IMG/VR virus record: IMGVR_UViG_2663763286_000009
Location: 1-6,746 of that record
Source: a virus
Lineage: Duplodnaviria; Heunggongvirae; Uroviricota; Caudoviricetes
Reading direction: 5' to 3' (one strand)
DNA length: 6,746 bases
The first letter of the stretch is position 1; each line of letters starts with the position of its first letter. Position numbers and translations under genes: made by a program. Below, piece after piece: positions 3,775 to 4,457 of the stretch. The notes under the pieces were generated by a model. The model was not told the DNA's origin and made no database searches. It saw only the letters and a list, made by a program, of their open reading frames with translations.

Positions 3775-3805
3775 TTGACTTAAAATATACGTGTCACTAA
3801 TATTT
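3775..3805 (+). promoter_or_regulatory. Strong sigma70-type promoter (PL-like) with overlapping operator-like element
   Basis: -35 TTGACT (3775-3780), 17-nt spacer, -10 TAATAT (3798-3803). A 23-bp imperfect palindrome AAATATACG tgtca CTAATATTT (3783-3805) covers the spacer and -10. Architecture and 9-mer CTAATATTT are shared with the ydaS promoter. Confidence 0.5.
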
Positions 3806-3960
3806 CTATCGAGAACAGCACGGCGCTGTAGGTTTTAGTTCCGCCACCCGGCGTTAAGGGAAAAGATTTGAGGTGATGTATGACGGGAGTGAAAATAGCG
3901 CCTATCAAACTTACCATAGACGCTACAGAAGTAACGGAACACTTTAGTGCGATACATGGG

Positions 3961-4191
3961 TTATTTAAACTTCCACCCGCTGCCTTTGAGGGTGTTCCGG
4001 AGCATGTCATTGACTTGTTTCTGAACTACATTTTTTCCTTGCTTAATAACATCGTCCTTAGTGATTTCTCGACCACATTCGGCACAACTAACGCCAACGA
4101 AATTAGTGTCAAAGTCAAAATCATCGGGCCGCTTGAGCATCTCACTGCCGCAATCAGGGCAGGCAACCTTCAAGGTCTGATTTTCGAGCAT
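3961..4191 (-). CDS. Small C4 zinc-ribbon protein (76 aa), function unknown
   Basis: Two CxxC pairs (CPDC and CAEC, 21 residues apart). ATG 4191 with GGAAGGA 7 nt upstream and an in-frame stop at 4222-4224. No ATA/AGA/AGG codons. The fully overlapping plus-strand ORF (3880-4230) is Leu/Ile/Phe-rich with rare codons, consistent with an antisense shadow. Confidence 0.55.
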   Translation of the reverse strand: MLENQTLKVACPDCGSEMLKRPDDFDFDTNFVGVSCAECGREITKDDVIKQGKNVVQKQVNDMLRNTLKGSGWKFK

Positions 4192-4409
4192 AGAAAAATC
4201 CTTCCATCTGTTGGGGGATATTCAGATTAACCTAATTTTCGCTGTTGGGGAATAACGAAAACCACCGAAGCCCGGAGGTGGTGAAATAAAACCGGGCACA
4301 ACACGAAGGCGCATTTCCGATATCCATAAAGAGTCGGTCTTGTCTGTTAAATTTAAATGGTGGGAGTGCGCCTCCGGTTGTAAATAACGACATTGCTGTG
4401 TGTAGTCCT

Positions 4410-4457
4410 GGCGGCATCAGTTTTTTCTTGAAGTTCGGCTGATGTCCGCCCTTTTTT
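4410..4457 (+). terminator. Terminator-like hairpin followed by T6 on the plus strand
   Basis: Arms GGCGGCATCAG (4410-4420) and CTGATGtCCGCC (4439-4450) form an 11-bp stem with one bulge and an 18-nt loop, followed by CTTTTTT (4451-4457). No T-run after it on the minus strand. Confidence 0.3.

Follow-up and report, generated by a model that had tools for sequence, protein, structure and literature searches.

Several described systems resemble parts of a locus in the virus record IMGVR_UViG_2663763286_000009 (Caudoviricetes), positions 1 to 6,746, here called the window, meaning the full stretch of 6,746 nucleotides (nt) that was analysed. In it, an open reading frame (ORF) of 116 amino acids (aa) on the plus strand, the plus ORF, runs across the whole of a zinc-ribbon gene on the minus strand. 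A parallel in position is sieB of the Rac prophage of Escherichia coli K-12; sieB, a superinfection-exclusion gene inside the pL operon, is also present in lambda and P22. Rac sieB occupies the same slot, between the repressor-proximal genes and kilR, in the same antisense orientation, and the region upstream of it (positions 2454-2560 of the K-12 locus L004, minus strand) has the same layout, with the distal part identical. The two antisense genes have, however, no sequence relationship, and the zinc-ribbon protein has 76 aa against the 162 aa of K-12 SieB. In K-12 Rac, moreover, ydaG and ydaF stop where sieB ends, whereas here the plus gene crosses the entire antisense gene.

The dicBF operon of the Qin prophage is a second likeness. 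It comprises a DicA-repressed promoter, small ORFs, a small RNA (sRNA) named DicF and then the division inhibitor DicB (PMC10448788, PMC5069750), and processing of the polycistronic dicBF mRNA releases DicF (PMC10448788). The window likewise has a putative repressor-controlled early-left promoter, one or more small first genes, a stem-loop of the DicF type carrying a U-tail, and a conserved leader ahead of a division-inhibitor gene. The differences are that the hairpin is a sub-threshold DicF with a different 5' part, that the inhibitor is KilR and not DicB, and that Qin has no known antisense gene beneath its first ORFs.

To our knowledge, few bacterial protein genes that overlap completely in antisense have been described, and those are disputed. 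Antiparallel overlapping genes have been described in E. coli O157:H7, among them ano/ECs2385, laoB and asa (PMC5960689, PMC5810103, PMC6294744, PMC9927249). These cases rest on RNA-seq and ribosome profiling; laoB is described as a product of overprinting, and similar genes are reported to have evolved recently (PMC5810103, PMC4765031). As there, the plus ORF is antisense to an annotated gene and has a Shine-Dalgarno sequence and a putative promoter of its own, and pipelines retain one strand. In contrast, the pair in the window is known from sequence alone, is conserved in at least eight genera down to 42-46% partner identity, and overlaps totally, in a codon-opposite register, within the regulatory arm of a phage operon. 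Lambda OOP against cII and P22 sar against ant are short, non-coding cis-antisense RNAs that end at their own terminators. Convergent transcription over a lysis-lysogeny gene, with one strand lowering the other, would be common to those systems and this one, whereas the antisense strand here would be an mRNA continuing into a long operon. The operon, the logic of the sieB slot and the DicF-like element are of known kinds; the literature search found no account of two probable protein genes overlapping completely, in codon-opposite register and in conserved form.

Our reading, to which we assign a probability of about 0.6, is that the window holds the head of an early-left operon with a cassette coding on both strands. 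It is carried by the gene map, the module boundaries, the constraint on the zinc-ribbon gene and on the N-terminus of the plus protein, and the persistence of the plus frame, all of which were obtained by comparative sequence analysis. By gene content and order, the window covers the immunity region and the start of an early-left (pL-type) operon in a lambdoid, Rac-like E. coli prophage. Promoter-like sites at 3734-3803, overlapped by operator-like dyads, adjoin the repressor gene; after them come kilR, ydaE, racC and recE, each likewise on the plus strand.

The minus-strand zinc-ribbon gene is, on comparative grounds, genuine. Its product matches NCBIfam family NF047912 (ECs_2282 family zinc-binding protein) with 81.6 bits against a cut-off of 37, over positions 2-60 of the 60 in the profile. 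Two CxxC pairs are present, of which C14, C36 and C39 are invariant and C11 nearly so (90% or more) in 15 sequences. Homologues with up to 57% identity occur across Enterobacterales, and the Prokaryotic Genome Annotation Pipeline (PGAP) annotates the gene in the same slot of strain FDAARGOS_1287. In codon alignments, 31, 33 and 63 of 68 sites were variable at zinc-ribbon codon positions 1, 2 and 3, respectively. The median pairwise ratio of nonsynonymous to synonymous divergence (dN/dS) in this frame was 0.10, and an estimator that scores each change in both frames together gave a pNN/pSN of 0.27. Many third positions look site-specifically fixed, which may reflect no more than shared ancestry and was not counted as evidence.

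The gene also has start signals of its own. An AAGGA/AGGG-type Shine-Dalgarno is kept in all 14 of 14 lineages, and the upstream region, whose layout is kept across lineages, contains a hairpin (4262-4281) with a T-run and an 11-nt direct repeat (4242-4252 and 4208-4218) around a -10-like TAATCT (4224-4229). Changes in the hairpin stem are compensatory. From this layout we infer that the region 4208-4281 has promoter function. The two copies of the direct repeat co-vary from lineage to lineage (TTCCCCAACAG or TTCCACAGTCA), a pattern suggesting that a sequence-specific factor binds there.

That the zinc-ribbon call is wrong and the plus ORF is the sole gene is close to refuted. Some annotators and RefSeq records do call the plus ORF alone, and its AlphaFold model is the more confident of the two (78.6 versus 64.0), but the positions at which 63 of the 68 sites vary are first codon positions in the plus frame, which is incompatible with this alternative. 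The conserved cysteines, the curated family match and the gene's own conserved Shine-Dalgarno, ATG and upstream region speak against it as well.

By position and regulation, the zinc-ribbon gene is the counterpart of sieB, although it has no homology to it; Pfam, PHROGs and NCBIfam returned no SieB family match to its protein. In all homologous loci, it lies antisense inside the early-left arm, 3' of the repressor gene or of an N gene. Given this sieB-like place and orientation, the gene is most likely active in lysogens, where it may serve exclusion or defence. A weak match to the PADLOC candidate defence family PDC-M14A (E = 1e-6) fits a defence role and is no proof of it. A scan for the zinc-ribbon protein in one genome per species gave no confirmed locus, and protein look-ups and the viral collection were used instead. 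The literature search found no mention of ECs_2282, and a paper on the Rac transcription factor makes no statement on the early-left arm.

The plus ORF looks genuine as well and is the probable first gene of the early-left operon. The earlier note on this DNA had described it as an ORF overlapping the whole zinc-ribbon gene in the same codon register, preceded by a GAGGTG Shine-Dalgarno 4 nt before ATG 3880, and both features were recovered, the latter at 3870-3875. The register is exactly antiparallel, with plus codon position 1 opposite minus position 3; residues 1-27 are encoded outside the overlap, and residues 28-104 lie opposite the zinc-ribbon gene. The comparison of the start region covered 13 lineages that share less than 90% nucleotide identity. 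Every one of them has a Shine-Dalgarno of the GAGG/GGGG type 5-9 nt ahead of the aligned ATG, and so do two deep relatives, the metagenomic L100 and L101 from Edwardsiella. The peptide encoded by 3880-3960 is conserved (K-[VI]-A-P-[IL]-x-[LI]-x-[IV]-D-A-[ST]-E ... Q ... L-[FL]-[KE]-[LF]). In the 23 non-overlapping codons, the ratio of nonsynonymous to synonymous changes (pN/pS) was 0.59 (confidence interval [CI] 0.42-0.78), third positions vary most, and the plus frame is the sole stop-free frame of the six.

Twelve of the 13 lineages have an uninterrupted plus frame of 97-116 codons. The frame is open in L100 and L101 too; identity there is only 42-46% for the zinc-ribbon protein and 35-40% for the plus protein. 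In these 12 lineages and two deep relatives, both frames are open with their own start signals, the Shine-Dalgarno and ATG being kept on both strands. The plus ORF lies behind the leader found ahead of ydaG in K-12 and of rac11 in Rac-SA53, and in N-carrying phages it lies 3' of the N gene. L016, which is outside a prophage context, has the only zinc-ribbon gene found without a plus-ORF start, and its plus frame holds three stops.

An exhaustive search returned 26 relatives of the plus ORF, of which about 20 are family members of 73-158 aa with mutual identities under 50%. Nearly all have the N-terminal motif and a C-terminal motif resembling AAIRAG, the counterpart of CPDCG read in antisense. 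The family includes RefSeq proteins from eight genera and gp50 of phage Edno5. RefSeq and annotation pipelines keep one strand or the other at the same DNA, and records exist for both proteins. AlphaFold, given six input sequences, models the plus protein as one compact alpha/beta domain (predicted local distance difference test [pLDDT] 78.6, predicted template modelling score [pTM] 0.62), with pLDDT 81-89 over residues 11-90, spanning the overlapped and non-overlapped parts. No relative was found by sequence among solved structures and no family in Pfam, NCBIfam or PADLOC, and the match in PHROGs was weak only. K-12 YdaF and YdaG were compared as candidate relatives and are unrelated. Three independent database relatives (P0035, P0037 and P0052) shift after about 80 residues into one alternative frame (...NISLPQSG[QH]T...VCMNISFLLLG...); this shared switch near a KVKI[IV]G stretch suggests recurrent frameshifts or sequencing errors.

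Selection on the openness of the plus frame was examined within the overlap, where plus-frame stops arise only from the zinc-ribbon sense codons TTA, CTA and TCA. Four of these codons were observed against 19.6 expected from the codon usage of flanking genes (P = 2e-5), and one internal plus-frame stop where the composition of fourfold third positions in the genes themselves predicts 9.8 (P = 6e-4). The share of codons ending in A was 2% at at-risk codons versus 12.9% at control fourfold codons (P = 0.013), and C was preferred at 40 of 50 Leu/Ser fourfold codons. Taken with the start region, these figures make translation from ATG 3880 likely and selection keeping the plus frame open probable; a sequence-specific function of the overlapped two-thirds of the plus protein is unproven.

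Several observations weigh against a cassette coding on both strands. The cleanest estimator, a plus-frame pNN/pNS of 0.97 (CI 0.70-1.38), carries no selection signal, and the naive plus-frame dN/dS on the same columns is about 1.4. The pSN/pSS of 0.65 (CI 0.53-0.84) favours the plus frame and rests on approximately 2.5 doubly synonymous sites per pair. With alignment columns as the unit, the comparison of A-ending codons gives P values of 0.04-0.07, and the lineages in the stop-avoidance tests are not fully independent. The codon-opposite register is the classic shadow frame, in which codon bias of the RNY type (purine, any base, pyrimidine) alone favours long antisense ORFs. In the Yersinia lineages, a plus-frame stop leaves a product of 34 aa. 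Three of the five AlphaFold models of the plus protein failed (pLDDT 34-40), and no relative of its fold was found in PDB or BFVD. Rare codons are present: AGA and AGG occur once each, as had been claimed, and ATA three times instead of four. Finally, the six promoter-like sites of the region are no excess over the 4.7 +/- 2.4 of shuffled sequences, and the total of the operator-like motif in the window is not above chance.

The comparison of synonymous and nonsynonymous variation proposed in the earlier note was carried out. In the overlap, substitutions are synonymous only in the minus frame, which that note would have scored as pure antisense; the test is, however, blind to a nested, less constrained frame. 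The note's lean against translation is not borne out, and its alternative of a second protein is favoured by the conserved Shine-Dalgarno, ATG and 27-aa N-terminus of the 13 lineages, by the frame open in 12 of them and in two deep relatives, and by the position behind the leader, although selection in the overlap is not cleanly shown.

These substitutions, distributed as if the minus frame alone were coding (pNN/pNS 0.97), are what a shadow ORF without a functional protein would leave. The transcript would then be a long leader of kilR-recE, its local effect limited to antisense or collision interference. The register is prone to long antisense ORFs, the current PGAP family model names the zinc-ribbon gene only, and the K-12 Rac transcript crosses sieB without an overlapping plus ORF. 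We nevertheless regard a shadow ORF as improbable. It leaves unexplained the Shine-Dalgarno and ATG kept at a fixed offset, the purifying selection and lack of stops in the 23 non-overlapping codons, the position behind a shared first-gene leader, the avoidance of stops, and a frame still open at 42-46% zinc-ribbon identity.

An overlap pNN/pNS near 1 where stops are yet avoided is also the pattern expected if only openness is selected. The plus ORF may be translated with only its first 30-45 residues, or the act of translation itself, being of consequence: ribosomes would keep Rho from terminating the early-left transcript and kilR-recE from suffering polarity, and the overlapped tail would be functionless. 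Clear protein-level constraint is confined to the non-overlapping N-terminus, the Yersinia phages that tolerate the 34-aa truncation have the N antiterminator, and kil of K-12 Rac is demonstrably kept in check by Rho/NusG-dependent termination (PMC4150792). This explanation is unlikely, though it is the main rival of our reading. AlphaFold's single compact domain extends across both parts of the protein, and the other N-carrying lineages, L009 and L017, retain the full frame. The pSN/pSS ratio and the preference for C hint at sequence-specific constraint, and the deep relatives keep the plus protein about as well as the zinc-ribbon protein.

Comparison with other prophages revealed three homology boundaries. 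Window positions 2370-3867 are 96% identical to Rac-SA53, whose genes differ beyond 3867; positions 3835-3867 are 94% identical to the 33 nt directly 5' of ydaG in K-12 Rac; and positions 4239-6624 are 99.5% identical to K-12. Since these boundaries differ, promoter, cassette and hairpin come from separate modules. What had been taken for one promoter-to-terminator unit is, by homology, three modules joined: an immunity module with the promoter, the cassette (3868-4238) and a kilR-side module with the hairpin. The promoter module also occurs in Rac-SA53 and the kilR-side module, hairpin included, in K-12 Rac, and the cassette is absent from both. The genes rac10 and rac11 of Rac-SA53, whose annotation looked like that of the same gene pair, encode unrelated proteins.

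These boundaries bear on the claim of the earlier note that the unit yields an antisense RNA of approximately 650 nt. A promoter-like site and a terminator-like hairpin do bracket the zinc-ribbon gene, and an RNA starting near 3810 and ending at 4410-4457 would be fully complementary to the zinc-ribbon mRNA and could control the gene. Such a self-contained RNA is nonetheless very improbable, given that its promoter and hairpin belong to different modules, each of which occurs without the cassette, and that other cassette-bearing lineages have no DicF-like match. In addition, no other obvious plus-strand promoter for kilR-recE is present in the window, so that read-through of the hairpin is needed, and the transcript would continue into kilR-recE.

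The promoter that the earlier note had called near-consensus, TTGACT (3775-3780) and TAATAT (3798-3803) with a 17-nt spacer, is present and matches only 9 of 12 consensus positions; a better site, TTTACA-18-TATAAT at 3734-3763, matches 11 of 12. The 3775-3803 site is a candidate pL-equivalent promoter, with a start expected near 3810. An operator-like dyad, AAATATA-N9-TAATATTT at 3783-3805, spans its spacer and -10. Similar sequences recur at 3703-3717 and, in the interval separating the repressor gene from the cro-like gene, at 3078-3099; a 15-nt repeat is common to 3703-3717 and 3791-3805. Six of the nine ACTAATATTT-like matches in the window fall within these two regulatory regions. The dyads fit, but do not prove, control of the early-left promoter by the repressor, which would bind to them. 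Between the repressor gene and the early-left promoters, a terminator (3646-3677) with a perfect 13-bp stem and A8 and T8 flanks could stop repressor transcripts on the plus strand and presumably zinc-ribbon transcripts on the minus strand. K-12 Rac has a Rho-dependent terminator inside racR instead (PMC4150792).

The leader at 3835-3867 carries a small hairpin (GTTCCGCC-ACCC-GGCG..AAGGG). It stands directly 5' of the first early-left gene whatever the immunity type or first gene, be it ydaG in K-12, rac11 in Rac-SA53 or the plus ORF here. The shared block stops at 3867 in Rac-SA53 and begins at 3835 in FDAARGOS_1287. No N-like gene was found among the ORFs and family matches of the window. 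Rac-type prophages are without an N gene, whereas in prophages of Hafnia, Yersinia and Atlantibacter a related cassette comes after an N gene. The leader is kept in lineages without N and could be a regulatory RNA element of Rac-type phages of this kind; a search of Rfam for its hairpins as nut- or put-like antitermination sites gave no family match. A terminator-like hairpin with a U-rich tail, at 3815-3829, precedes the leader.

On the kilR side, the terminator-like hairpin with T6 that had been reported at 4410-4457 was confirmed. It consists of a 13-bp stem (4410-4451; -19 kcal/mol, z = -2.4) followed by T6 at 4452-4457, and a simple terminator scan missed it because its loop has 14 nt. 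The Rfam model of DicF (RF00039) matched 4397-4457 with 37.6 bits (E = 1.4e-5), below its gathering score of 48; in the alignment, the stem and tail match, and the 5' part and loop differ. The K-12 Rac copy of the hairpin is also sub-threshold, at 39.1 bits, and no DicF-like match was found in the cassettes of other genera. The hairpin lies 163 nt 5' of kilR on the same strand, and hence in the early-left operon upstream of a division-inhibitor gene. A predicted duplex between the hairpin and the translation-initiation region of ftsZ reaches -33.2 kcal/mol (z = +0.4 versus shuffles), a test without discriminating power, given that authentic DicF likewise scores z = -1.1. By analogy with DicF of Qin, the hairpin, placed between the cassette and kilR, is probably a leaky terminator or a processing site.

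The hairpin is followed by an element resembling STnc100, for which Rfam gave 37.7 bits over 4440-4639 against a gathering score of 47, and 51.6 bits in L006. Of 5426 complete E. coli genomes, approximately 4150 contain DNA about 80% identical to positions 4446-4612, in one listed case 5' of dicB. One hairpin, CACCUGGAGGCACCAGGCACC, is conserved within this STnc100-like element, which is about 170-200 nt long.

In the scheme that follows from our two-strand reading, the early-left promoters would be off while the repressor is active, and the zinc-ribbon gene would be expressed from the sieB-type region, its transcript probably stopping at the bidirectional terminator 3646-3677. Upon inactivation of the DicA/RacR-type repressor, one or two sigma-70-type promoters (3734-3803), released at the overlapping operator-like dyads, would fire. 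The plus transcript would include the leader 3835-3867, and the 116-aa protein would be translated from ATG 3880, plus codons 28-104 being exact reverse complements of zinc-ribbon codons. Plus-strand transcription and translation would then run head-on through the zinc-ribbon gene and silence it. Part of the transcription would pass the DicF-like hairpin and proceed through the STnc100-like leader into kilR-ydaE-racC-recE. As the two genes converge over the same DNA, their expression should be mutually exclusive, the zinc-ribbon protein being made as long as pL is repressed and the plus protein after pL has become active. The antisense interference with the zinc-ribbon gene is expected as a by-product of plus transcription. 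The predicted elements of this scheme are activity of the promoters and operators, transcription past the hairpin, mutually exclusive expression and the functions of both proteins.

A bolder version is that the cassette is a deeply conserved dual-coding module, opposing an early-lytic protein to a zinc-ribbon exclusion or defence protein of the lysogen, with the plus protein as the phage's own antidote or escape factor. We consider this version tentative and on balance doubtful. The esc function is said to shield P22 from its own SieB, which would be a parallel to the antidote idea. A module of this type would ensure mutually exclusive expression and make the pair inseparable by the recombination that shuffles phage modules.

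If both strands are translated, the pair would be an ancient and widespread case, present in at least eight enterobacterial genera and in an isolated phage, with comparative support and a built-in regulatory logic that sets a lysogen strand against an induction strand. A practical point is that annotation pipelines choose one strand for the same DNA. The analysis also helps to clarify the route by which transcription would reach the toxic kilR in Rac-type prophages, and it indicates that antisense genes of the sieB slot share a conserved upstream region.

The order of genes in K-12 Rac matches that of the window, the place of the pair being taken there by ydaG and ydaF (plus strand) and sieB (minus strand). 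Families were assigned to the repressor, the cro-like, the ydaT/U/V-like, kilR, ydaE, racC and recE genes, and the features are listed below.

Features of the window, with strand and the basis of each assignment
Feature	Position	Strand	Basis
ydaV-, ydaU- and ydaT-like genes	755-2790	minus	family searches
cro/YdaS-like gene	2774-3055	minus	family searches
DicA/RacR-type repressor gene	3157-3618	plus	family searches
Bidirectional intrinsic terminator	3646-3677	both	inverted repeat I2, 100% complementary
Promoter-like sites (two)	3734-3763, 3775-3803	plus	consensus matching
Operator-like dyad	3783-3805		direct repeat D2
Conserved leader	3835-3867	plus	comparison with other prophages
Plus-ORF Shine-Dalgarno, GAGGTG	3870-3875	plus	aligned in 13 lineages
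Plus ORF, 116 aa (probable gene)	3880-4230	plus	comparative analysis and AlphaFold
Zinc-ribbon gene, 76 aa	3961-4191	minus	NCBIfam NF047912
Zinc-ribbon Shine-Dalgarno, GGAAGGA	4199-4205	minus	7 nt before ATG 4191
sieB-type upstream region	4208-4281	minus	layout kept across lineages
DicF-like stem-loop with U6 tail	4397-4457 (hairpin 4410-4457)	plus	Rfam and fold
STnc100-like leader 5' of kilR	4440-4639	plus	Rfam
kilR (FtsZ inhibitor)	4620-4853	plus	NCBIfam NF008465, 161 bits
ydaE	4847-5023	plus	family assignments for kilR-ydaE-racC: NF008465, NF041288, NF007306
racC-like gene	5050-5373	plus	family assignments for kilR-ydaE-racC: NF008465, NF041288, NF007306
recE	5475 onwards	plus	Pfam Exonuc_VIII

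The recE gene is incomplete. Homology to K-12 stops at 6624, and within the remaining 6625-6746 the last 120 bases are 100% identical to the end of an IS600, an element of the IS3 family. With recE cut short in this way, the prophage is defective in this arm.

In Klebsiella and Citrobacter prophages (L010-L013), added gene pairs, DUF7946/DUF7947 or DUF1828/DUF6978, lie between the repressor and the cassette, the match to DUF6978 being faint. These pairs support a view of the early-left arm as a hot spot of accessory or defence genes. In one viral contig (L024), a strong match to the sRNA isrB, with 80.8 bits against a gathering score of 35, was found at 451-535, approximately 1 kb from the cassette.

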